Source of the DNA: Chlamydiales bacterium
GTDB lineage: Bacteria > Chlamydiota > Chlamydiia > Chlamydiales > SM23-39
Assembly (NCBI GenBank): GCA_028278035.1
Contig: JANQFC010000058.1
Location: 5,092-69,091 of the forward strand
Length of the DNA stretch: 64,000 bases
Direction: 5' to 3'
Below the pieces are notes generated by a model. The model saw nothing but the letters and a program-made list of their open reading frames with translations. It ran no database searches and was not told the origin of the DNA. A program made the position numbers and the translations under genes. Below, one piece after another: positions 8,060 to 59,242 of the stretch (positions within the stretch are counted from its first letter, which is position 1; each line of letters begins with the position of its first letter).

Positions 8060-9304
8060 TTAATTGCTATTTTTGGCTTTTTCAAATGCCCAATCAAAAG
8101 TTTTGTCAATTCCGGAAGAATAATCTTCCCAGGTGATAGGCATAATAAATTCTGGATAGAAATCATTTGCAATATTATCGGAAGTAATATGAAAATATTT
8201 TGAAGAGCATGTAAAAATATTCTTGGAATAAGGCAACTGATATTTCTTGATCTCTCCAAAATGGTTAAGTTTATTCGAGGTAGGTTCTCCAATTGTAGTC
8301 ACATTGGTAAGTTTTAAAAGATCTCTAATAACCCACATGCTTGCAGAAAATGTTTTTCTTCCGGTCAAAAGAAAAATACTTCCTCTGCTTTTTTTTATGT
8401 GTTTTTTTATTATTGGAAGAAAATATTTTGAAAATACTAAAGAACTTCCGCCTGAATTAAATCGAATGTCTAATATAATAGAAGAAATTGTTTTTTGTTT
8501 TAACATTTGAGATAATTCTAAAGCAAAATTTTTACAATCTTTTTGCGGGGTATTCTGGCACTTATTATATTGAAAATACAATATACGTTCTTCTGGAAAA
8601 ACATGACTCCAAAAATTTTTTTCAATATAACGATAACTCAAGGGTATTTTTTGTGTAAATTTATCAAAACATGAGACCATTTTTTCATTGTAGTTGTCAC
8701 CTCTGGAAATCATTATATAACTAATATTTTTTTCTTTTTGTAGTCCCAATTTAATTGTATTGGAGTTTTTAGTGATTTTCAAACCATCTAAAATATCTAC
8801 AACTTTTAAATATTTAGGAATAAAATTTTTGATACTATATTCATTTTCAGCAGGTATAAGTAGAGAAATTTTTTCAATAATAGCTTCAATTGGAATATCC
8901 TCAATAGAGACCAGTTTGGCGCCGATTTGAGTTTGATGTTTTTCTATAGCTTGCGTTATGAATATGCCTTCTTCAAACCAATAAAATTGAAAAGGCAAGC
9001 AATAGGATTGATTGGGATAAACAAAAAGTGAAGTATGAGCGTCTCCAAGTTGAGCAACAATCTGCATTAACTCAACTCTGATTTCCTTGTCATTTAAATT
9101 TGATAAGTTTTTTTTCAAATTTTTCAAATCTTGCTGAAAATCTTTTTTTGAGAATTTGAAAAAAGGCTGAGGGTGTGTTTTTATAAGTTTTTTTTCAAAA
9201 AAATCAATATCATTTTCCCATTTCAAGGTATGATCAGATAAAATTTCACTGCAAAAAAGATTGCAAGTAAAAATTATTAGAAAAAGGGTATATTTTATAT
9301 ACAT
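8060..9304 (-). CDS. Secreted S41-family serine peptidase
   Basis: 414 aa with an N-terminal signal-like segment (MYIKYTLFLIIFTCNLFCSE). S41-type motifs ILDIRFNSGGS (DLRxNxGG) and TGRKTFSASMW (TxSA catalytic Ser region). The N-terminal region with LGDAHTSLF is typical of these peptidases. Confidence 0.72.
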   Translation of the reverse strand: MYIKYTLFLIIFTCNLFCSEILSDHTLKWENDIDFFEKKLIKTHPQPFFKFSKKDFQQDLKNLKKNLSNLNDKEIRVELMQIVAQLGDAHTSLFVYPNQSYCLPFQFYWFEEGIFITQAIEKHQTQIGAKLVSIEDIPIEAIIEKISLLIPAENEYSIKNFIPKYLKVVDILDGLKITKNSNTIKLGLQKEKNISYIMISRGDNYNEKMVSCFDKFTQKIPLSYRYIEKNFWSHVFPEERILYFQYNKCQNTPQKDCKNFALELSQMLKQKTISSIILDIRFNSGGSSLVFSKYFLPIIKKHIKKSRGSIFLLTGRKTFSASMWVIRDLLKLTNVTTIGEPTSNKLNHFGEIKKYQLPYSKNIFTCSSKYFHITSDNIANDFYPEFIMPITWEDYSSGIDKTFDWAFEKAKNSN

Positions 9305-9412
9305 GGCTTACATATGTTAAAGTACAGATGAATATTATATCAAATTAAACTTCTGATAATTATTAAAAATAATATTGCCAAGGGTAGAATAAAGCTGGTT
9401 ATACAAGTTTTT

Positions 9413-10720
9413 TTAGTCCTGATTAAAATGAAATTCGATATCTTTTCTCAGTAAAAAGATGCCGATCAAATTAATCACAAGGAGCATAGCCCCTATTATT
9501 GAAACAAATATAAATGCCGTATTTGCATTTACAAAGGAAAAAGAAAACAGCGCTATTGTGCCGTAAATATAATATATTATTTTTCCGTATTTTTTTGAGA
9601 CAAAATTCATACATTTAAGCCCTATTAAAAAAACGGTTATCACAGTTAAAAATCCTAATAAAAACAAGAAAACGGGCATGAAGTACTGCATATAAGGAAA
9701 ATATGATCCCAAAGCTTCTTGGAGCATTAAAGTGGAGGCTGTAGAACTTTTCCATGCATTTGTTATTAAAACAACGAAAGAAGTAAGCGTACATAATATA
9801 AATGTTTTAAAAAAGACATTTAAAGTGCCTAAGGCTGCTTGTATATTGGGGTGTTCGACATTGGTCTCTGTATTAATTACTGAATTATAACCTGTTCCTA
9901 AATCTGCCGCATATGCTCCCCGAGACAGTCCGATCGATAGGGTAAGAAATATTGTGCTTCCTGCAAAACCGCCAGCTGCAGCCTGTTTGGAAAAAGCAGA
10001 TTTAATAATTAATAAAAATATAGAGGGAACAAGGCTTAAATTATTTAAGAGCAAATATAAGGCCATTAAAATGTAAGATATTAAAAAAATCGGAAGAAAA
10101 AAATGAATTACTCTGCTTAACCTTTTTATACCACCTAGAGTTACAAAAATCAAGAAGCTTAGCAAAACAGTGGACAATAATATTTTACTTATCTGCCAGT
10201 TAATTGAAATGCTTTCTGTAATAACATTGAAAAGATAAATTTCAACTCCATAAACCGCAATAAACAACGCTACTAAAATGCCTATCCAGTTATTTTTATA
10301 TGCCTTGGGCAGAAAATACATAGGTCCGCCGTCATATCCTTTTTTTGTAGGAGTTCTGTATTTCATACCTAAATATACTTCGCAGTACTGTACAATCATT
10401 CCTAAAAAACCAGCTATCCATATCCAGAAAACGGCTCCTGGGCCTCCCAGTTTAATAGCCGCACAAACTCCTATAATATTACCGATCCCAATACTACCGC
10501 CTATTGCAGTAAAAAGGGTTTTTAAAGGATGAAGGCCTTTTTGGTTATTATTGGATTTCATTGATGAAAAAAATAGTTGAAAGATTTTCGGAAAATTTCT
10601 TATTTGAAAGTATCTGGAAAAATGAGTGAAATAAAGCCCTAAAATTATCAGGACGGCAAAGACAATATATCTCCATAAGATATTATTAATATTAAAAAGT
10701 ATAGAAGATAGATCCGACAT
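9413..10720 (-). CDS. Alanine/glycine:cation symporter (AGCS) family transporter
   Basis: 435-aa polytopic protein. GIGNIIGVCAAIKLGGPGAVFWIWIAGFLGM matches the conserved AGCS core. Confidence 0.82.
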   Translation of the reverse strand: MSDLSSILFNINNILWRYIVFAVLIILGLYFTHFSRYFQIRNFPKIFQLFFSSMKSNNNQKGLHPLKTLFTAIGGSIGIGNIIGVCAAIKLGGPGAVFWIWIAGFLGMIVQYCEVYLGMKYRTPTKKGYDGGPMYFLPKAYKNNWIGILVALFIAVYGVEIYLFNVITESISINWQISKILLSTVLLSFLIFVTLGGIKRLSRVIHFFLPIFLISYILMALYLLLNNLSLVPSIFLLIIKSAFSKQAAAGGFAGSTIFLTLSIGLSRGAYAADLGTGYNSVINTETNVEHPNIQAALGTLNVFFKTFILCTLTSFVVLITNAWKSSTASTLMLQEALGSYFPYMQYFMPVFLFLLGFLTVITVFLIGLKCMNFVSKKYGKIIYYIYGTIALFSFSFVNANTAFIFVSIIGAMLLVINLIGIFLLRKDIEFHFNQD

Positions 10721-10907
10721 TGTTTATCCTTAAAGTCTTCTATTATCATGATTTAAAGAATTTTTATCTATTTTTTTATTTTTTAAAAAAATATTTTATT
10801 ATTCTTTAACTAACCTGAGTAAATTAAGAGTGATAATTTAAGTTTATCATCAGATTTGATATAATAATTTTGATGTAATTATTAATTTTTAAAAGATAAT
10901 AATAAAA

Positions 10908-11819
10908 ATGACATCTTTAGCTACTATGTACAGATCTTTGCCGGAATGTTCTTATAGTTATGACGATTATATGCATAGAGTCTTTTTGACTACTAATGAA
11001 AAAGGTTATGCTAAAGTCTTACAACAATTGGAGCATATTAAAATCAAAGGAAATACAATAATTGGAGTATCAGGTCTTTATACTTTGAATATAGCAGCTA
11101 AAAGATTGATGATGGATTATAACAATAAAATTAGAAATATCATAATTATTGACAGAAGTGATAAAACTAAGTTTTTTTGGGAAAATATTTCATCAATAAT
11201 AAAAGAATCACCGAATAAAGATATAGCTATGGAAAGAATTCTGGATAATTTCTGGGTTAACAAAAGAATATATTACACAGATGATGATCAGCAAAGCGAG
11301 AAGCAGGCCAGTAGTTGGATTATTTCTGTATTGTATGAAATACAAGAAGATACTAGTTTTTTATCGACAGAAGAGTCTTTTAATGCAATCAAAAAGATCT
11401 TTGACCAGGATGGTTTTCAGTTTTTAAGATTGGACTTTTCAGAAGAAGAGACTTTTCAGAAATTTGCTCAAACTTATAAACAATCAAAATTAGAAACCGA
11501 TACAATTTATTTATCAAATGTATTAGAATATTTGAATTTTTCTGAGCAGGATAAAGCACTTGCTTCATTGGTAAATTTAGTGTCTTACAGATCTTTGATC
11601 GTGGATACAAAGCCAAGAGAAAAAGAAAAACAAAAATTGTTTCAAAGAATGCGCAGATATAGACCTAATCCTTCTAGAAGAGTTAAGTCTTTATCCAGTA
11701 TTTTAAGAGGCGATAGGACAATACTTCATCATTCTTTTGGGCAAAACCTTTTGGAAGATAAAACTGCGAAAATATTATTTGAAATGAAATTTCAAATAAT
11801 TAATTGTCATAAAATTTAA
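10908..11819 (+). CDS. Hypothetical soluble protein, no recognisable family
   Basis: 303-aa ORF flanked by 187-bp and 175-bp very AT-rich spacers. No motif recognised. Confidence 0.55.
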   Translation: MTSLATMYRSLPECSYSYDDYMHRVFLTTNEKGYAKVLQQLEHIKIKGNTIIGVSGLYTLNIAAKRLMMDYNNKIRNIIIIDRSDKTKFFWENISSIIKESPNKDIAMERILDNFWVNKRIYYTDDDQQSEKQASSWIISVLYEIQEDTSFLSTEESFNAIKKIFDQDGFQFLRLDFSEEETFQKFAQTYKQSKLETDTIYLSNVLEYLNFSEQDKALASLVNLVSYRSLIVDTKPREKEKQKLFQRMRRYRPNPSRRVKSLSSILRGDRTILHHSFGQNLLEDKTAKILFEMKFQIINCHKI

Positions 11820-11994
11820 ATTTTTTGCATGTCAATCTTCAGTTTAAGTAATTGATAATAAATGACTTAATTAAACAAAAATTAAAATATTTACTTTATT
11901 AAAAAATATTTGAATTAAGAGTTGATTGATGTTATAATATATGTAATTAAAACTAAATTAATAATTAAATAATATATAACAAAGGTAAAATAAA

Positions 11995-13533
11995 ATGGCA
12001 ATTAATGTAGAAGATTTTAAGAATAAACAAGTTGCAGCTCATGAGGCTGGATCTGCCTTTCTTTCTCCTGAAATAAGAGATTTAACTGACGTTTCATTAA
12101 GTGCTGTTGAAAGAGCAGTATTTAATGCTTTTGAAAAAACGGAGCATGCAGTAGCTTTTTTGAACTTGGATCATTCTATTCGATATAAAAATCCTTACAT
12201 GAATATTTTGTTAGAAGACATTGAGTTACATTCAGCAATAAATTATTCTTTTATAATAACTCAGTTGGATTGGGAAAAATATGATGAAACACAAAAAGTC
12301 AATTCATTGGTTTGCAAACTTTCTAAATCTGAAGATTTTCCATATATTCAATTAGAAATAGCAAAAGAAGATCCAATAAGAAAAAAAATGCACGATATAA
12401 GAGCTGCTTCTGCTCCTATTGAAGACCATATAAAAAATGGTGATATGCCAAGTATTTTAGCTTGTCAAAGAGCAGTTATGGATATTGCTGAAGCATCTTT
12501 GTCCCCAGTACCTAAAAGCAAAAATTTTGAGATTAGTGAATTAATAAGTGCTGTAACTTCTCAAGTAAGGCATATTAATCCTGAAATTAATTTAAAAATC
12601 GATGTTCAGGAAGGGGTGTTAAATGAACTTAATGGCCCTTCTACAGAAATTAATCAAATACTTGTCAATTTACTAAGAAATGCATACGAACATGCTTTTG
12701 TAAGATCTGACAAGACTGATTCTACAATAACTTTAAGAATAGAGTTAGCAGACATTCAGCCTAAAGGTCAAATAGCGTTAAGATTTATGGTAGAAGACAA
12801 TGGAAACGGAATACCGTTAAATGCAAGAGATACTTTTATGCTCTCTGGAGTAAGCGGCGAGTCGGATTCTCCGAAAAGCGACAGAAATTATGGACTTGGT
12901 ATGTCTAGTGCTTTAACTGAAGCTAAAAAAATTGGGGCTGAATTATTATTAGTTAGAACTAAAACTATCGATGAAGTACCGGCTGATCAAACAGGAACTG
13001 TTTTTTCAGTAGATGTTGTATTAAATAAAAGAAAAACTCCCCCAACAGCAGTCCAGCAGCAAAAGTTTCAGCTGAAAAGTGATGATCATATATTATTTGT
13101 TGATGATAATTCTGTATTAACAAAAACTACTCCTCGTTTGTTGAATAAAATAGGATATAAAAATGTAGATATAGCAAAAAGTCCGCAAGAAGCTTTAGCT
13201 TTGATATTAGCAAAAAAATATTCTGCGGTTATTTTAGATAATAACTTTGATGAGGTAGGAGAGTGTAAAGCTTTAAAAAAGGGATTGGAAATTGCTAGAA
13301 TTATAAATATTGCATATCAGGGCTCAAATTATATTATTATTTCATCCTCCGCTACTCCAGCCGATGAAATAATGAAACAAGAGTGGGCTAAAGTTGGTTG
13401 TGATAAATTTTTAGACAAGCCTATAGGGCTTCATAAATTAAGAGTTGTTTTAGGAGAGCCTGTTGATGTTAATGTTTTTCATCCAATTACTCCTGAACAG
13501 CCTAGAAAGGCAGCTGCTGCTGCGGCTGAATAA
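11995..13533 (+). CDS. Soluble hybrid histidine kinase (HATPase_c + receiver domain), no TM sensor
   Basis: H-box-like KMHDIRAASAPI, N-box LVNLLRNAYEHA, G1 DNGNGIP and G2 YGLGMS. The C-terminal receiver has ILFVDDN, AVILDNN and KFLDKPIG. There are no hydrophobic segments. The protein ends in PRKAAAAAAE. Confidence 0.75.
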   Translation: MAINVEDFKNKQVAAHEAGSAFLSPEIRDLTDVSLSAVERAVFNAFEKTEHAVAFLNLDHSIRYKNPYMNILLEDIELHSAINYSFIITQLDWEKYDETQKVNSLVCKLSKSEDFPYIQLEIAKEDPIRKKMHDIRAASAPIEDHIKNGDMPSILACQRAVMDIAEASLSPVPKSKNFEISELISAVTSQVRHINPEINLKIDVQEGVLNELNGPSTEINQILVNLLRNAYEHAFVRSDKTDSTITLRIELADIQPKGQIALRFMVEDNGNGIPLNARDTFMLSGVSGESDSPKSDRNYGLGMSSALTEAKKIGAELLLVRTKTIDEVPADQTGTVFSVDVVLNKRKTPPTAVQQQKFQLKSDDHILFVDDNSVLTKTTPRLLNKIGYKNVDIAKSPQEALALILAKKYSAVILDNNFDEVGECKALKKGLEIARIINIAYQGSNYIIISSSATPADEIMKQEWAKVGCDKFLDKPIGLHKLRVVLGEPVDVNVFHPITPEQPRKAAAAAAE

Positions 13534-32870: not shown

Positions 32871-32978
32871 ATTTTTGCCCCCAATTTGCTTTTATACAAA
32901 AAAGATTTTTTATAAAAGAGCTTTTTGGACAGTTGATAATAAATCTTGATATTCTGTATAGTTATATTGATTTTTTGT

Positions 32979-48308: not shown

Positions 48309-48522
48309 CGGATTTCATCTCCATAAATTTTTAGTAAAATAATAGCAATTATGCTTCTTTAGAACAAGAGTATATATTCAGATTTTGAATAATTTTTAAC
48401 TTGTATTAAAAGATTATATGACAATTTATATTTTTAATATGAAAGCTTTAGAATATAGGTAAAAATAAAAAAAAGTTTTTACATAAAGCTCTATTTATTT
48501 ATAAATGGATAGAGGGAAAATA

Positions 48523-51500
48523 ATGAAAAATTTTATTTTTTTCAAAAGTATTTTATTGTCAATAGCTTGGATAAATACAGCATTGTTTGCTAATCCGGAA
48601 GATCCCAGTGTTATTTCTGGAAATGCTACTTTTTCTCAAATAGACAATACTTTAAATGTCCAGGCTACTAATGATGCAATTATTAATTGGCAAAGCTTTT
48701 CCATTGATAAAAATGAGACAACAAATTTTTTACTTCCAACGGTAGATTCCACTGTTTTAAATAGGGTGGTAGGCCCAGATCTATCCAATATCTCAGGAAA
48801 ATTAGAGTCTAACGGCAATGTTTATCTTATTAATCCCAACGGAATTTTGATATCTAAAGATGGAATTATTAATACCGCGAGCTTCTTGGCATCGACGGTA
48901 GATATTAAGGATCATTTGTTTTTAAATAAAAATTTAATTTTTGATATCGACAGCAATACCTCTATTGTAAATTTGGGGAGTATTACTACGACACAAGGTG
49001 ATATTACTCTTTTATCCTATCATGTGAAAAATGAAGGTCAGCTTGAATCAAAAAATGGTTCTGTTTTAATTGGTGGTGGAAAGAAATTTATTTTAATGCC
49101 TCATGAAAAAGAAAAATTGTCAGTAGCAATTAGTGTAGAAAATGAAAAAGAAGAAGATGGGATCATAAATGCGGGCGTTATAAAGGCTTTGCAGGTAGAG
49201 CTAAAAGCCGATGGTAATATCTACAAACATGCCATTAAAAATGAAGGTATGATAAATGCAACATCTGTTAAAAAAGAAAACGGCAAGGTGTTTTTAGTAG
49301 CTCAAAATTCAGAAGTGACTACAAATGGAAAAATAAAAGCATCTAAAGCTGACATTGGCGGAGAGGTTAGAATATTAGGATCTAGAGTTAGAGTTTATGA
49401 TAATGCTGTAATAGATGTATCCGGCAATCTGGGCGGCGGAGAAATATTATTAGGCGGAGACTATAAAAGAGAAAATCCGGATATCTTCAATGCAGATATT
49501 ACTTTTGTAGAAGAATCTTCGCAGATAAAAGCTGATGCTGTAGAAAATGGTAATGGTGGAAGAGTTATTTTATGGTCAGACCGTATTACTGCCAACTATG
49601 GTTTAATATCCTCCAAAGGCGGAAGAGATTTTGGTGATGGAGGGTTTGTTGAGATATCTTCGTTAGGTCATATTTTTCCAAAAGGTCAGGTTGACACCTC
49701 GGCTTTAAACGGAAAAGTAGGAATGTTGGTATTGGATCCGGGAACGATTAATATTACAGGAGCTACTGCAAATATCGCTTGGGCGGCAGGAGTTGCAACT
49801 CCTACTGCGAATACGGCTACATTATCTGTAGCTGATATATTAGCCCAATTGGCATTAACAGATGTTACGGTAGATGCGACAGGAGGACCCGGTACAGGCA
49901 CCGGTAATATTAACGTCAACTCTTCCATTACTGTAAATGGAGCTACTTACAATACAAGAACTTTATTTTTAAAAGCCTACAATAACGTAGATGTCAATCA
50001 ACCGATAACATTTTCAGAAACATCGGCTAACTTAATTTTAGAGGCAGGTAATGATGGTGCCGGTAACATTACAATTGATCAGGATTTGACTTTTAGTTCG
50101 GCAGGTACTGGAACAAGCGGTGATTTAACATTAAGAACAGCAAGCGGACAAAATGGCAATATTCAAATAAGAGATCCTGTTATTTTTGATTCATCCGGGA
50201 CCATGACCGTTTCTGCTGGCAGTGATTTTACTGTCAATACCGCAGATTCTATTACTTTAAACGGAACAGGCGATTTATCTATTACGGCTGCTGACGATGC
50301 TACTATTAACGGAACGATTACCATTAATGGTACAGGGACTTTAACATTTAATATTACAGATAACCTTAATATTAATAATTTAGTAAAAAATACTTCAACA
50401 GGGGATATCAATGTTACTGTTGGCGGTGATTTATCTATGGGAAATGGAAATCAAAACGAACCTCATCAGTTAGGTACTTTTGGAGGAACTTTAACACTGA
50501 ATATTGATGGTGGGCTGGAGATGATTGGGGGAAGGACGGATAATGATTGGGTGCAGATCGGATATGATACTGGAGATGTTTCAAGTGATATTATTTTTAC
50601 AAAGATTACAGGCGATTTAATTATGAAGGGAGGGGCTAGAGCTAATGCCGAAACATGTTATTCTTTGATCGGTCATGGAGCAAACACTTCCGGAGCTGCT
50701 ACAAGAAGCGGTAACATTACAATAACTGAAATTGGCGGCAGTATAGAGATGTTAGGCGGAGCTACTGATGATTCGTTTGTGCAGATCGGTCATGTTTCTG
50801 GCACCTCAGGAGCAGTAAGCGCAACAGGAAATATTTCTATTACTGATATAGGCGGATTTATAAGTATTGCAGGAGGGCTTAGCAATAATGAGCCGGGGAC
50901 TTATGCTCTTATTGGCCATGGAGGAAAAAAAACTACTCAAAATGACACTTATACTGGTTCGATTACAATCACTAGAGCAGCAGGTGCTATTAGTGCTTAT
51001 ACACTAAATTCGGGATTTGATCAGATGCTGAATGCATTGAACTCACTGAAATTTGCAGGGATCGGACATACTGCATATGCTGACGGCAGTGATATCACAA
51101 TAAATTGTTCTGCTTTATCTATTACTTCAGGAAATGATATTGTTGTCGGTGTCAACTCAAATTCGGAAGCGTTTATCGGTCCTAGGATTGTAACTACAAA
51201 TTCCGGTACGGGGATCATTTCCAACGGATCAGGTAGTGCCGTGCCTATTACAATAGTTACAGAAAATGCCGGAGATTTATCTTTGTCAAGTAATACTACA
51301 TCTCAGGATTTTCATGGGACAGTTCTGGGAGCTTATGTAAATACAGCCCAAACCTTTCCTTTAGCAGAATCTGCAAGCAGCTCTGCTCAAAGCAATATTT
51401 CTTTAACAATAGATGGCGGACTTACTGTAAGCGCAGGGAACTCTTCCAGCACAAATACCGAAGCTTATGCATATATTGTGAATTCATCAGGATCTCCCAC

Positions 51501-55631: not shown

Positions 55632-57182
55632 AGCATGTTCGGGACATTTAGCTTTTAGAGCCATATAAAGTTCTTTTAACGCTCTTGGTTTGTGATTATG
55701 TTTATCTAATATTTTTTTAGTATTTTTGTAGTATTTCCAAGCATTTAGATAATCATATCTTTCATAACAGATTATAGATAAATAATAATTCAGTGTCGGA
55801 TCGTTAGGATCAATTTTATATAGGTCATTGAGATATACCAAAGCTTCTTTTTCTCTGCCCAGCTGCAGGTATGTACTTGCAAGCTGCATAAGTCCCGCTC
55901 TGAACTGAGGATATTTTTTTACAACTTTTTTTAGCTCTTCTTGTTTTTCAATAATTGATTTTCTGGAAGAGTCCACTCCTTTAAAAATTGCTTTCATGGA
56001 TTTTATATCTGTTTTTTTATTTAGGTAGTCTTCAACTATTGTATCTTTAGAAGTAGAGTAATCGGGGAGATGGTTTTTTACATCTTCTAAAAGTATTCTA
56101 GCTTCTTTTTCTCTACCTACAAATAACATATTAAGACCCAAAAACTCTTGAAGCAGTTTGTCTTTAGGGATGTATTTTTTAGCTTTTTCATATAAGGAGA
56201 TGGCCATTTCGTGGTTTTCCCTGCCCCAGAAAACAGAGGCTTGGTTAAAAAAAGCAAGTCCTATGACTTCTTTAATATTTCTCATCTGAAGTTTCTTGGT
56301 TTCTATTGATAAATAGACTTCGGATGGATAGTCTACCCCTCTGGCTGTAGTTTCGATATTAGTTATTTTTCCGTTATTGTTATGTCTTATGTAAATGTGG
56401 CCTGGAGGTGTTACGATTTCTAGATTAAGACCGAGCCTTTGAGCTAAAGATAAATATAAAATGGAAACCCCTAAACATACCCCTCTTCTAGAGTCCATGA
56501 CAGACGGAAGAAATGTATAAGTATCGATATCTTTTGCATGGAGAGACTGGGGCGGGAACTTAAAGCCCATTTCATAAAAGATGTAATCATTAATAGTCTC
56601 TATTATATCAAGAGCTTTTGCATTTTCAGGAAGTTTAGCCAGTATCTGAAGTGCCATTAGATCCAAACATGCTTCGTAGTATCTTAATTTATAAAGGCTA
56701 TCTTGTGAGTCTCCTACTTCTTCTAAAAACAAGGCTCTTGACAAATCTACTTCATTGACTTTTAATTTCACCAGTTCTTGCGTGGCTTCTATTTTATGGC
56801 CCTTTAGTTTTCTGTTTTTTAAATTTTTTCCTAAGCTTTCTATAAATTGCAGTTTTTCTTCTGTCAATTCTTCAGGGGGAACTGAGCTTTGTTTGTTTAC
56901 TAAGGCTATCATTAGATTTACATCTAAAGAAGGTAAATATACAAAATCTTTTTTATCTTCCTGATTTAACAACTTCCAGGCTTTTTTAAGTGCCATTTTG
57001 CCTTCTTGAGTGTCAGGGTACAACTCATAAAAAGCAAAATGCTGAACGACTGATCTGGAATCTAAATTGTTGTATATTGCTTTTGTGGATTTTTTAGAGT
57101 CTGTGTCAATTCCCGGTAGTTTTAAAGATGTTAAATTTAAAAAACTAAGCACTAAAAGTAATGCATAAAAAATATTTTTCAT
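55623..57182 (-). CDS. Secreted transglutaminase-like / TPR-repeat protein (SirB1/YchA-like architecture)
   Basis: 519 aa with signal peptide MKNIFYALLLVLSFLNLTS. The transglutaminase-like core is RRGVCLGVSILYLSLAQRLGLNLEIVTPPGHIYIR (Cys and His). The C-terminal TPR-like repeats include A..YEKA, A..YL.L and AWKYYKN. Confidence 0.7.
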   Translation of the reverse strand: MKNIFYALLLVLSFLNLTSLKLPGIDTDSKKSTKAIYNNLDSRSVVQHFAFYELYPDTQEGKMALKKAWKLLNQEDKKDFVYLPSLDVNLMIALVNKQSSVPPEELTEEKLQFIESLGKNLKNRKLKGHKIEATQELVKLKVNEVDLSRALFLEEVGDSQDSLYKLRYYEACLDLMALQILAKLPENAKALDIIETINDYIFYEMGFKFPPQSLHAKDIDTYTFLPSVMDSRRGVCLGVSILYLSLAQRLGLNLEIVTPPGHIYIRHNNNGKITNIETTARGVDYPSEVYLSIETKKLQMRNIKEVIGLAFFNQASVFWGRENHEMAISLYEKAKKYIPKDKLLQEFLGLNMLFVGREKEARILLEDVKNHLPDYSTSKDTIVEDYLNKKTDIKSMKAIFKGVDSSRKSIIEKQEELKKVVKKYPQFRAGLMQLASTYLQLGREKEALVYLNDLYKIDPNDPTLNYYLSIICYERYDYLNAWKYYKNTKKILDKHNHKPRALKELYMALKAKCPEHALN

Positions 57183-57284
57183 AGTATGCGCCTTTTTTTT
57201 AGATCATATGAAAAAATTAATTGCTACTCAATAGTTAAAATGATAAATTCTTCGCACAATTTAAATTTTTAGGAGGTTTTTATA

Positions 57285-57674
57285 ATGGCGGGCAGCGTAG
57301 CAATAACACTAACTTTGAAAAATCCGTATATAGAAATGTCTAAGGATAAGATGTTCGAAAGAAAAGTTTTTAATCAAATGCAAGAAATGGTGACAGTCAT
57401 TGTTGATGCTTGCTGTAATCCAACAACTACGGGGATTTATCCTGATTTTGATTCTAAAATTAAATGTTTAATGGATACTGTAAATATTGAAGATGCACAA
57501 TTGCAGAGAGTTTTTAGAAAATATCACCAAAAGCTTAAAAGATCTGATGAAGGAGAAGTAAAACAAGCAATGAGAACAACTGCTGCCAAGGTAGCTCGAG
57601 AAATTTTGCAGACAGCATCAAGTTATACTAAATCCAATTTGGAAATTATAGGAAAAGCATATCGAAGAACTTAA
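57285..57674 (+). CDS. Hypothetical 129-aa protein
   Basis: The ORF has AGGAGG 7 nt upstream of the ATG. No recognisable motif. It lies between the TPS island and malQ. Confidence 0.5.
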   Translation: MAGSVAITLTLKNPYIEMSKDKMFERKVFNQMQEMVTVIVDACCNPTTTGIYPDFDSKIKCLMDTVNIEDAQLQRVFRKYHQKLKRSDEGEVKQAMRTTAAKVAREILQTASSYTKSNLEIIGKAYRRT

Positions 57675-59242
57675 TTTTTTAAGATTTCTTTGATGTCTTT
57701 TTTTAACTTGGTGTGATTGGTTATTTCTTCAAGTGTCGGTTTAAACCTATATGTCCAGTTGGTTGGAAGCATAGTACCGGGAATATTTATTCTTTCATCA
57801 TCTGGATCTTCCCATATAAGTTCCGGATATAAGGCTAGATATTCTTGTAGTAAATTGATATGGAATAAAGAAGACGAATGATGGGAGTCTTTTAATAGTT
57901 CCATTCTTTGTTTGTAAGATAGTTTATCTGTATAATGCCAGTTTTGAAACTTTGCAAATTTGGTAGCTCCTTTTAAGTAAGATTCCCACCATCCCTGAAA
58001 AGTATCGGAGTCATGTGTAGATAGAGTGGTCACGCTTAGTGGTTCATAGTTATTGAATTTAATATATCCAAAAGCCGTTTTTTCCCAAGGTATTACCTTA
58101 GTGCCGCAGATGCCCAGCTTATTTAAAGATTTATAAACAATTTTTGGTATAAGGCCTAAATCTTCTGCTATTGGCAATAGATCAGAAGAATCCAACATCA
58201 TTTGCAGTCTCTTGATTCCTTCTTTTGCCCAATGAGCAGGGTCTTTCGGAATGAACCTTCCTTCTACAGCATCTTCTGAAGGCTTGATCGCCCAAATCCT
58301 AAAAAAGCCGACTACATGATCTATTCTATACATGTGATACAGATGTTTGATCACATTTAATCTTCTTTTCCACCATTTGTAGTTTGTTTTTCTTAATGAT
58401 TCCCAGTCGAATAGGGGAAAACCCCATTTTTGCCCATAGAGACTGTAGTTGTCCGGAGGAGCGCCTGCTACATAAGTTTTATCAAAAATATCTTTATTGA
58501 ACCATACGTCTGCGCTATGAGGAGATACTAATATTGGAACATCACCTTCTAGGAGTATATTGTTTTCATCTGCATATTTTTTTACGGTTTGCATTTGTTT
58601 AAAGCATAAGTACTGCATAACAAAATAAAAATGCATGTCAGTATGGTGTTTTTGTAATAGGGAGGGAAGATTTGCTTTTGTGATATGTTTAATATTGTCC
58701 GGCCATGTATCCCAGTTTTTAAAATTCTGTTTTTCTAACAAGGTTCTGTATAGTGCATACTCTTCTAACCATGGATGGTCTTTTAAAAATTGTTCGAACT
58801 CTTTATTCTGTTTTATATTTTCAAAATTATGCTGGTAATATTCATAAAGCCATTTTAGCTTGAGTTCTTTTAGTTTTAAGTAGTGAACCCTTTGATAAGT
58901 ATTGAAAAGATCAAAGTCTTTTAATTTTTTTTGTAAAGAAGCACTGATATTGTCCAATGCATGTAAGGATATATGAATAGGATTTAATGCGCAGGATGAT
59001 ATTGCGTTATAAGGACTGGGATCTTTTCCTGTTTCGTTTAAGGGTAAAAGCTGGATAACATTAAAACCGACATCTTTTGAAAAATCAATTACGTCCAATA
59101 AATCTAAATACTCTCCTATCCCTGAGCTTTTTTGGGTTCTTAAAGAAAATAGCGGAACTACTATGCCATGATGGTTTTTACAGCCGATTTTTTCCCAGTG
59201 TTTGGCCGATGGACATGTTTTTATATAGTTTTGTATATCCAT
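57671..59242 (-). CDS. malQ: 4-alpha-glucanotransferase (amylomaltase, GH77)
   Basis: 523 aa. GIGEYLDL, YNAISSCALNP, YRIDHVVGFFRIW, and STHDSDT. Confidence 0.9.
   Translation of the reverse strand: MDIQNYIKTCPSAKHWEKIGCKNHHGIVVPLFSLRTQKSSGIGEYLDLLDVIDFSKDVGFNVIQLLPLNETGKDPSPYNAISSCALNPIHISLHALDNISASLQKKLKDFDLFNTYQRVHYLKLKELKLKWLYEYYQHNFENIKQNKEFEQFLKDHPWLEEYALYRTLLEKQNFKNWDTWPDNIKHITKANLPSLLQKHHTDMHFYFVMQYLCFKQMQTVKKYADENNILLEGDVPILVSPHSADVWFNKDIFDKTYVAGAPPDNYSLYGQKWGFPLFDWESLRKTNYKWWKRRLNVIKHLYHMYRIDHVVGFFRIWAIKPSEDAVEGRFIPKDPAHWAKEGIKRLQMMLDSSDLLPIAEDLGLIPKIVYKSLNKLGICGTKVIPWEKTAFGYIKFNNYEPLSVTTLSTHDSDTFQGWWESYLKGATKFAKFQNWHYTDKLSYKQRMELLKDSHHSSSLFHINLLQEYLALYPELIWEDPDDERINIPGTMLPTNWTYRFKPTLEEITNHTKLKKDIKEILKN

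Follow-up and report, generated by a model that had tools for sequence, protein, structure and literature searches.

A probably relocated chlamydial two-partner secretion gene pair beside the type III secretion genes of an uncultured chlamydia

The stretch analysed here (the window) comprises 64,000 nucleotides of contig JANQFC010000058.1 from a Chlamydiales bacterium, an uncultured low-GC (~30%) chlamydia related to Anoxychlamydiales. Between rpmB and malQ it carries two adjacent genes, tpsA and tpsB (together tpsAB), that encode a two-partner secretion (TPS) system. MAP, MarC, PLD and rpmB lie on one side of this interval, and malQ, scc1 (CesT), copN, cdsV and cdsU, which make up the type III secretion system (T3SS) block, lie on the other. 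The interval also holds a gene for a transglutaminase-like protein with tetratricopeptide repeats (TGase/TPR) and a small orphan, orf129. Coordinates are collected in Table 1.

Table 1. Features of the rpmB-malQ interval and its immediate borders, in window coordinates.
Feature	Position	Strand	Description
rpmB (ribosomal protein L28)	48033-48308	-	PF00830, E=2.3e-16; backbone, low-coordinate side of the insertion
Divergent rpmB/tpsA intergenic region	48309-48522	.	From alignment and reading of the sequence
tpsA	48523-53961	+	1812-aa secreted beta-helical exoprotein (predicted): signal peptide, TPS domain, long stalk
TPS secretion domain of TpsA (LNRV, NPNGI)	48616-49338	+	Pfam best stretch, aa 38-278 of the 1818-aa reading frame
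Periodic repeat of the TpsA stalk	51640-53442	+	~4 copies of ~135 aa; lags 135 and 270 stand out in the autocorrelation
C-terminal 413 aa of TpsA	52720-53958	+	AlphaFold2 model, pLDDT 83
tpsB	53958-55631	+	557 aa, Omp85-family outer-membrane transporter; PF03865
Transglutaminase-like/TPR gene (SirB1-like domain)	55623-57182	-	519 aa; PF13369 (Transglut_core2) and TPR
orf129	57285-57674	+	129-aa orphan in the widened malQ-TGase/TPR spacer
malQ (GH77 4-alpha-glucanotransferase)	57671-59242	-	PF02446, E=6e-121; backbone, followed by scc1-copN-cdsV-cdsU

The open reading frame (ORF) of tpsA spans 48505-53961 and encodes 1818 aa when counted from its first ATG. A Shine-Dalgarno sequence (AGAGGG, 48511-48516) lies 7 nt upstream of a second ATG at 48523, and an ortholog on another contig, L001, described below, begins at the equivalent MKN, which makes ATG 48523 the likely start. 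The N-terminus of TpsA, MKNFIFFKSILLSIAWINTALFA, is hydrophobic and signal-like. The TPS domain matched PF05860 (E=2.5e-32, 113 bits against a cut-off of 33.5) and TIGR01901 (5e-20, 71 bits against 29.1), with LNRV at aa 79 and NPNGI at aa 104. The start of tpsB overlaps the stop of tpsA on the same strand in the tetranucleotide ATGA at 53958-53961, and we infer that the two genes are co-transcribed. The order tpsA then tpsB recurs in four other chlamydial loci (L001, L002, L085 and L087).

TpsB matched the ShlB/FhaC/HecB family PF03865 with 90 bits (cut-off 22.7) and PF01103 with 37 bits, and its Pfam POTRA match fell just below threshold (20.2 versus 21.3 bits). In an AlphaFold2 model of the protein (pLDDT 87), aa 40-180 form alpha/beta modules and a barrel comes after them. 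The best Foldseek matches of this model were CdiB (6wim, E=8e-29, TM 0.68-0.71) and FhaC (4ql0, 1.6e-25; also 4qky). A T-V-R-G-Y sequence lies at aa 448-452, and 30 chlamydial homologs all keep its R450-G451-Y452, which belongs to the loop-6 motif. We conclude that tpsAB is a genuine type Vb operon belonging to a chlamydia-specific TPS lineage. These results bear out the gene calls of an initial annotation, which had described a 1812-aa TpsA with an NPNGI-containing TPS domain, a tpsB coupled to it through ATGA, and a type Vb system; the TPS and ShlB domains both score above curated cut-offs. The same holds for the two other genes that it placed in the interval: the TGase/TPR gene is convergent with tpsB, their 3' ends overlap by 9 nt (55623-55631) and its product begins with a hydrophobic, signal-like segment, while the 129-aa orphan orf129 has no homolog besides itself among 1.84 billion representative proteins.

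To place the pair in its genomic setting, we used 80 malQ-centred loci from species-representative chlamydial metagenome-assembled genomes (MAGs) and genomes, fetched through an alignment of chlamydial MalQ proteins, and located the proteins of the window on them by tblastn. The recurrent order across these loci was cdsU-cdsV-copN-scc1-malQ-TGase/TPR-rpmB-PLD-MarC-MAP. TpsA or TpsB matched in none of the 80, and no TPS gene lay within 10 kb of malQ or the T3SS genes in any of them. By contrast, 49 of the 80 have the TGase/TPR gene downstream of malQ and on its strand, separated from it by a spacer whose median length is 123 bp. This gene directly precedes rpmB in the closest relatives: the gap measures 106 bp in L004 (Anoxychlamydiales K1060_chlam_5, whose MalQ is 70% identical to that of the window), 97 bp in L012 and, in the JGI contig L084, 107 bp. 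Since the TGase/TPR gene recurs so widely and sits 97-107 bp from rpmB in these relatives, it belongs to the backbone and not to an island, and only tpsAB was inserted. The junction that is occupied in the window is empty in L004, L012 and L084, a presence/absence polymorphism at a conserved site.

The inserted material is tpsAB together with ~100 bp of new upstream sequence, ~7.2 kb in all (~48.4 to 55.6 kb), on the opposite strand. It sits exactly between the stop codon of the TGase/TPR gene and the rpmB promoter region. The rpmB-proximal ~110 bp of the divergent intergenic region can be aligned loosely to the spacer between the TGase/TPR gene and rpmB in the relatives; the remainder is new. 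The proteins on both sides are ordinary members of the backbone: compared with the closest relatives, rpmB is 67-75% and the TGase/TPR protein 60-65% identical, and synteny resumes past the insertion in both directions (MAP, a coiled-coil gene and an M20 peptidase). The initial annotation had stated for Chlamydia trachomatis that PLD, rpmB, malQ and scc1 follow one another, and had on that basis taken everything between rpmB and malQ, about 9 kb, for an insertion. This order agrees with the PMC11708050 supplement, which lists CT084 (PLD), CT085 (a putative decarboxylase), CT086 (rpmB), CT087 (malQ) and CT088 (scc1), and CT087 is given as MalQ in PMC3722199 as well. The extent of the insertion has to be revised: the Chlamydiaceae (in C. 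trachomatis CT086 and CT087 are consecutive) are the lineage without the TGase/TPR gene here, that gene is backbone elsewhere, and the island shrinks to the ~7.2 kb of tpsAB. The absence of tpsAB from this site in relatives is confirmed by the 80 loci. The juxtaposition of a type Vb and a type III system is likewise real in the window, and it is specific to this lineage. The true backbone in lineages outside the Chlamydiaceae can now be defined as malQ-TGase/TPR-rpmB.

The borders themselves are unremarkable. Counting ORFs of 80 aa or more, the rpmB-malQ interval contains only the four Pfam-scanned genes and two short antisense ORFs within tpsA (49686-49928 and 50163-50411), which we take to be spurious, and there is no integrase or transposase gene among them. 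A tRNA/tmRNA scan and Rfam placed no tRNA at the borders, the sole tRNA of the window being at 32978; a search for direct and inverted repeats at the flanks returned short matches at chance level, and promoter and terminator scans of the borders gave background levels. The ORF, tRNA/Rfam and repeat scans thus agree with the earlier statement that integrase, insertion sequence, tRNA and direct repeat are missing here. As the window comes from a metagenome-type contig, an assembly or binning chimera might have joined tpsAB to the backbone. However, the sequence around the two junctions is unique and dense in genes, the 3' end of tpsB runs 9 nt into an intact, full-length TGase/TPR gene, and neither third-position GC (GC3) nor codon usage changes at either junction. 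It is very unlikely that two chimeric joins would have left the synteny perfect to the left and right of tpsAB, and we regard an artefact of this kind as extremely improbable.

We next considered whether the pair is native or foreign. The total GC of tpsA is 37-41%, compared with ~30% in its surroundings. This excess lies at the second codon position (GC2 0.46), as expected from a protein rich in Gly, Thr, Ser and Ala, while GC3 is 0.248 in tpsA and 0.280 in tpsB, within the 0.21-0.32 of the neighbouring genes. The per-codon synonymous G statistic marks neither gene as deviant: tpsA has 0.056, the lowest value among 38 genes, and tpsB has 0.109. As a separate observation on composition, the strongest outlier of the window, far beyond tpsAB, is a radical-SAM gene at 6338-7621 (minus strand), with 24% GC and a GC3 of 0.14.

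A word-indexed protein search, which is not exhaustive (it missed the 61%-identical TpsA of L001 and the window's own MalQ), returned 252 relatives of TpsB and 904 of TpsA. Among the matches listed, all named TpsB relatives and all but two named TpsA relatives are Chlamydiota; their taxa include Anoxychlamydiales, Parachlamydiales, Rhabdochlamydia, Neptunochlamydia and Algichlamydia. The closest named relative among those listed, from Anoxychlamydiales, is 46% identical in TpsB and 37% in TpsA. CdiB scored 42 bits against TpsB, whereas the 120 chlamydial matches listed scored at least 315 bits. In a neighbour-joining (distance) tree of TpsB, which has no outgroup root, the window grouped with P0002, P0003 and an Anoxychlamydiales protein, and the affinities found in the MalQ search agree. 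Many Chlamydiota MAGs encode proteins named for a filamentous hemagglutinin N-terminal domain that are homologous to the one in the window, and a TPS operon is noted in Rhabdochlamydia helvetica in PMC6490308, where the genes, huxA/huxB-like, have the same two-gene architecture in the same phylum. TPS systems are old and widespread in environmental chlamydiae and form part of their accessory repertoire.

These data bear directly on the reading implied by the initial annotation, that of a recent island from a non-chlamydial donor such as a proteobacterium. Its appeal is easy to see: all 80 loci lack tpsAB at this site, the total GC of tpsA exceeds that of its surroundings, and two of the named TpsA relatives are labelled as Planctomycetota or Sulfitobacter MAGs. 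However, the GC excess is confined to codon position 2, with GC3 and codon usage native (in which respect the earlier annotation had been right to suspect protein composition), the named relatives are all or nearly all Chlamydiota, characterised proteobacterial TpsB proteins are very distant, an ortholog in a sister chlamydia has diverged as the backbone has, and mobility genes, tRNA and repeats are missing from the borders. Foreign origin was thus rejected on GC at the three codon positions and the codon G test, on the names of the homologs and on the distance to solved proteobacterial TpsA and TpsB proteins, and we consider a non-chlamydial donor very improbable. Host-like codon usage and chlamydial nearest relatives instead argue that tpsAB is native to Chlamydiota.

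The sister-genome ortholog also informs on how the pair came to its present position. JGI sample 3300033153 contains a contig, L001, that encodes P0002, a protein 71% identical to TpsB. The tpsA gene upstream of it there specifies a 1678-aa protein, 61% identical to the TpsA of the window over its whole length. In the pairwise alignment the L001 protein has a gap of ~130 aa at aa 1400-1530, within the repeat region, which we read as probably one stalk repeat unit fewer. The L001 pair is placed between an ispD-SDR gene with three small ORFs and a gene for RNA 3'-phosphate cyclase (RTC). The same sample contains contig L084, with its uninterrupted malQ-TGase/TPR-rpmB junction; the two contigs have a GC of 27.1% (L001) and 26.6% (L084). 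For the backbone proteins of L084, identity to their counterparts in the window is 56-83%, a range that includes the values for TpsB and TpsA on L001. Other tpsAB pairs lie beside dapA/thrS (L085), phoU/rluA (L087), epimerase/rtcB (L002), mreC (L088) and a Band_7 gene (L089), such that the seven chlamydial tpsAB loci occupy seven different contexts, all of them housekeeping and without mobile-element genes. None of the chlamydial TPS relatives compared is found at the rpmB/malQ/T3SS locus.

The three small ORFs on L001 deserve a note of their own. They are arranged in tandem directly upstream of the orthologous tpsA (3063-4616, minus strand), encode 128-133 aa each, appear by eye to be paralogous with a common motif, IYVN...KKA.G.EDEQTWQRI, and have no Pfam family listed. 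They showed no similarity to anything in the window.

Collectively, these data support the idea that tpsAB is an old chlamydial accessory cassette that was relocated in a lineage-specific manner, or moved between close relatives, rather than an island from another phylum; we assign this reading a probability of about 0.7. By parsimony, insertion at the present site would be the simplest history. The converse history, in which the TGase/TPR-rpmB position is ancestral and tpsAB moved away from it in the L001 organism and was lost from it in the other Anoxychlamydiales-like genomes, draws on a direction that the present data leave unrooted, on the phylum-wide variation of TGase/TPR-rpmB spacers from 97 bp to 6.4 kb, and on the incompleteness of MAGs. 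However, the tight junctions of 97-107 bp occur in three separate relatives, the junctions of L009, L011 and L026 (466-817 bp) contain no TPS remnants, and this history needs several clean deletions plus one translocation instead of a single insertion. We therefore find it quite unlikely, and prefer relocation into the present site.

What might the relocated pair do? Among solved structures, the sequence of TpsA matched EtpA (8vba, E=1.6e-47, aa 19-679), HMW1 (2odl, E=1.4e-44, aa 29-383) and HxuA (4i84, E=2.5e-25, aa 25-318 only), and past aa ~680 it matched no structure in the PDB. The 135-aa period of the stalk came from autocorrelation; self-BLAST of TpsA gave no off-diagonal matches. In the model of the C-terminal 413 aa, a continuous beta-helix extends to about aa 1735 and is followed by a short helix and a low-confidence tail. 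Foldseek of this model against the PDB returned generic beta-helices and nothing below E=0.3, and on this basis a toxin or enzyme module at the C-terminus was rejected. TpsA contains no VENN, VDNN or ELYN pretoxin motif and no toxin Pfam domain. Instead, its C-terminal module (LVLDQQAPAAP..GAGRLY..GG.LRIFTA..PFTVFYK) recurs in chlamydial TpsA proteins: the stretch at aa 1550-1700 is found near the C-terminus in 61 of the 120 matches listed, TpsA itself included, and the last ~110 aa are common to 8 of the 120 and ~60% identical in the L001 ortholog. The number of NXS/T sequons, 45 compared with ~34 expected, is unremarkable.

An N-terminus like those of EtpA and HMW1, a repetitive stalk and the lack of a toxin or enzyme module suggest that TpsA is most likely a surface or released adhesin directed towards a eukaryotic host. 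The initial annotation had left the choice between adhesin and toxin export open; the EtpA and HMW1 matches favour the first, and the second finds no toxin domain or motif to draw on. A different function, as an ShlA/HpmA-like cytolysin, a contact-dependent inhibition toxin or an HxuA-like haem/haemopexin binder, has some points in its favour: databases name relatives "Heme/hemopexin-binding protein" and "HuxB", HxuA does match the TPS domain, and a membrane-active exoprotein could serve an intracellular bacterium in getting into or out of cells. However, the strongest and longest matches to solved structures are to the adhesins, the HxuA match ends at aa 318, and no ShlA or HpmA chain appeared at E=0.01. 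In addition, the pretoxin motifs are missing, the C-terminus is shared with other chlamydial TpsA proteins and is predicted to fold as a plain beta-helix, no immunity gene stands behind tpsA, the order is A then B, and there is no hxuC at the locus. Such a function thus seems unlikely, though it deserves to be kept in view, and we favour the adhesin role.

Comparison with characterised systems places TpsA nearest to EtpBAC of enterotoxigenic Escherichia coli and HMW1ABC of Haemophilus influenzae. These too have a long beta-helical exoprotein, to which TpsA can be aligned in its TPS domain and over the first ~650 aa of its stalk. The hmw1 genes also share the A-before-B order of tpsAB. By contrast, the ~135-aa stalk repeat and the C-terminal module are specific to chlamydiae, and the N-glycosyltransferase gene of the two systems (HMW1C/EtpC) has no counterpart at the tpsAB locus, where the neighbours are rpmB and the TGase/TPR gene. 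TpsB shares its fold, the ShlB/FhaC/HecB domain and the RGY of loop 6 with FhaC of the Bordetella FhaB/FhaC pair and with CdiB of E. coli and Acinetobacter, at 16-17% identity to proteobacterial TpsB proteins in structural alignments. CdiBAI has the order cdiB-cdiA-cdiI, a toxin tip and an immunity gene, whereas tpsAB runs A then B without toxin tip or cdiI; directly downstream of tpsA lie tpsB and then the convergent TGase/TPR backbone gene. HxuA has half the length of TpsA and is accompanied by the receptor gene hxuC, whereas no TonB-dependent receptor gene is present at the tpsAB locus, and the haem/haemopexin label on chlamydial TpsA proteins is an annotation transferred from the TPS domain only. 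Finally, the Pmp autotransporters of the Chlamydiaceae and TpsA are likely to be analogous, each serving as a beta-helical surface adhesin delivered by a type V pathway; Pmp proteins are type Va with a fused barrel, whereas TpsAB is type Vb with a separate transporter, and no Pmp-type family was among the Pfam matches of TpsA.

By analogy with these families, TpsA would be exported by Sec via its N-terminal signal peptide. Its TPS domain would then dock on the periplasmic POTRA domains of TpsB, and the chain would be threaded through the TpsB barrel. Outside the cell TpsA may fold into a long right-handed beta-helix or fibre.

Several points weigh against this overall interpretation. L001 and L084 share a sample and a similar GC, and each occurs in three assemblies, but they may derive from different genomes. 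The direction is unrooted, and an ancestral position in the window followed by loss or translocation elsewhere would fit. How the pair might have moved is not apparent from the sequence: repeats and tRNA are missing, and none of the genes in the interval encodes a recombinase. The L001 TpsA ortholog was absent from the word-indexed TpsA search, which shows that this search was not exhaustive. With regard to function, the adhesin role rests on homology over the N-terminal ~680 aa and on the absence of other domains, and ShlA-like cytolysins are likewise beta-helical exoproteins. No HMW1C/EtpC-like glycosyltransferase gene is present at the locus, and the TpsB model shows no evident counterpart of H1, the N-terminal plug helix of FhaC.

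The analysis corrects the picture of an exotic island beside the T3SS core: the pair is native and its position has changed, and tpsAB is without demonstrable functional link to the adjacent T3SS genes. It also makes TpsA a candidate host-attachment protein of an uncultured low-GC chlamydia. Nothing here will surprise a specialist, and the value of the result lies mainly in annotation and comparative genomics.

The remaining genes of the interval are of secondary interest. The TGase/TPR protein of the window is full length with a conserved C-terminus, and its TPR part matched SctY, a family of T3SS chaperones, only weakly (E=1.3e-4, far below the cut-off). The spacer between malQ and the TGase/TPR gene is 488 bp in the window versus the median of 123 bp, and it is here that orf129 lies, with a strong Shine-Dalgarno sequence (AGGAGG) 7 nt upstream of its ATG and a 4-nt overlap with the stop of malQ. 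It had no Pfam, NCBIfam or PADLOC match and no relative in any fetched locus. We regard orf129 as best seen as a lineage-specific, possibly real small gene, fast-evolving or de novo, that is separate from the TPS insertion. Widened malQ-TGase/TPR spacers were also present in L012, with a 127-aa ORF at ~11855-12238 (minus strand), and in L026, with an ORF of ~213 aa at ~9169-9810 (minus strand). Both are antisense and in the same position as orf129, and unrelated to it. Kinship of orf129 with these ORFs or with the tandem ORFs of L001 was considered and dropped, as no similarity was found. The three spacer ORFs may be either small genes that evolve rapidly or frames that stay open by chance where the DNA is AT-rich.

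One could go further and suppose that tpsAB pairs are self-contained relocating cassettes that leave no signature, that TPS fibres are the main attachment adhesins replacing Pmp in marine Anoxychlamydiales-like lineages, and that the antisense ORFs of the malQ-TGase/TPR spacer (orf129 and that of L012) are fast-evolving secreted proteins near the T3SS. That all of this holds together is speculative and, in our view, rather unlikely.

We also considered the TGase/TPR-rpmB interval as a general accessory hotspot and rejected this, as in distant lineages it holds mostly housekeeping genes, including an lpdA-like oxidoreductase, an RDD protein and clpB. The gaps in those lineages look like synteny erosion and not like a dedicated integration site. 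Recurrent ORFs of the same size are found in the gaps of four more distant chlamydiae (L039, L043, L064 and L074). In L074, the sole one of the four to be Pfam-scanned, they encode the lpdA-like oxidoreductase, the RDD-family protein and clpB. The malQ-rpmB synteny block appears to have eroded differently between chlamydial families. In the 6-kb TGase/TPR-rpmB gap of L022, another chlamydial MAG, a gene at 10842-11807 (minus strand) encodes a RING-finger protein of the eukaryote-like E3 ligase type, which is likely a host-directed effector. Finally, the MarC-family gene, which is single-copy in the window (46356-46964), is tandemly duplicated in L004 (14641-15822).

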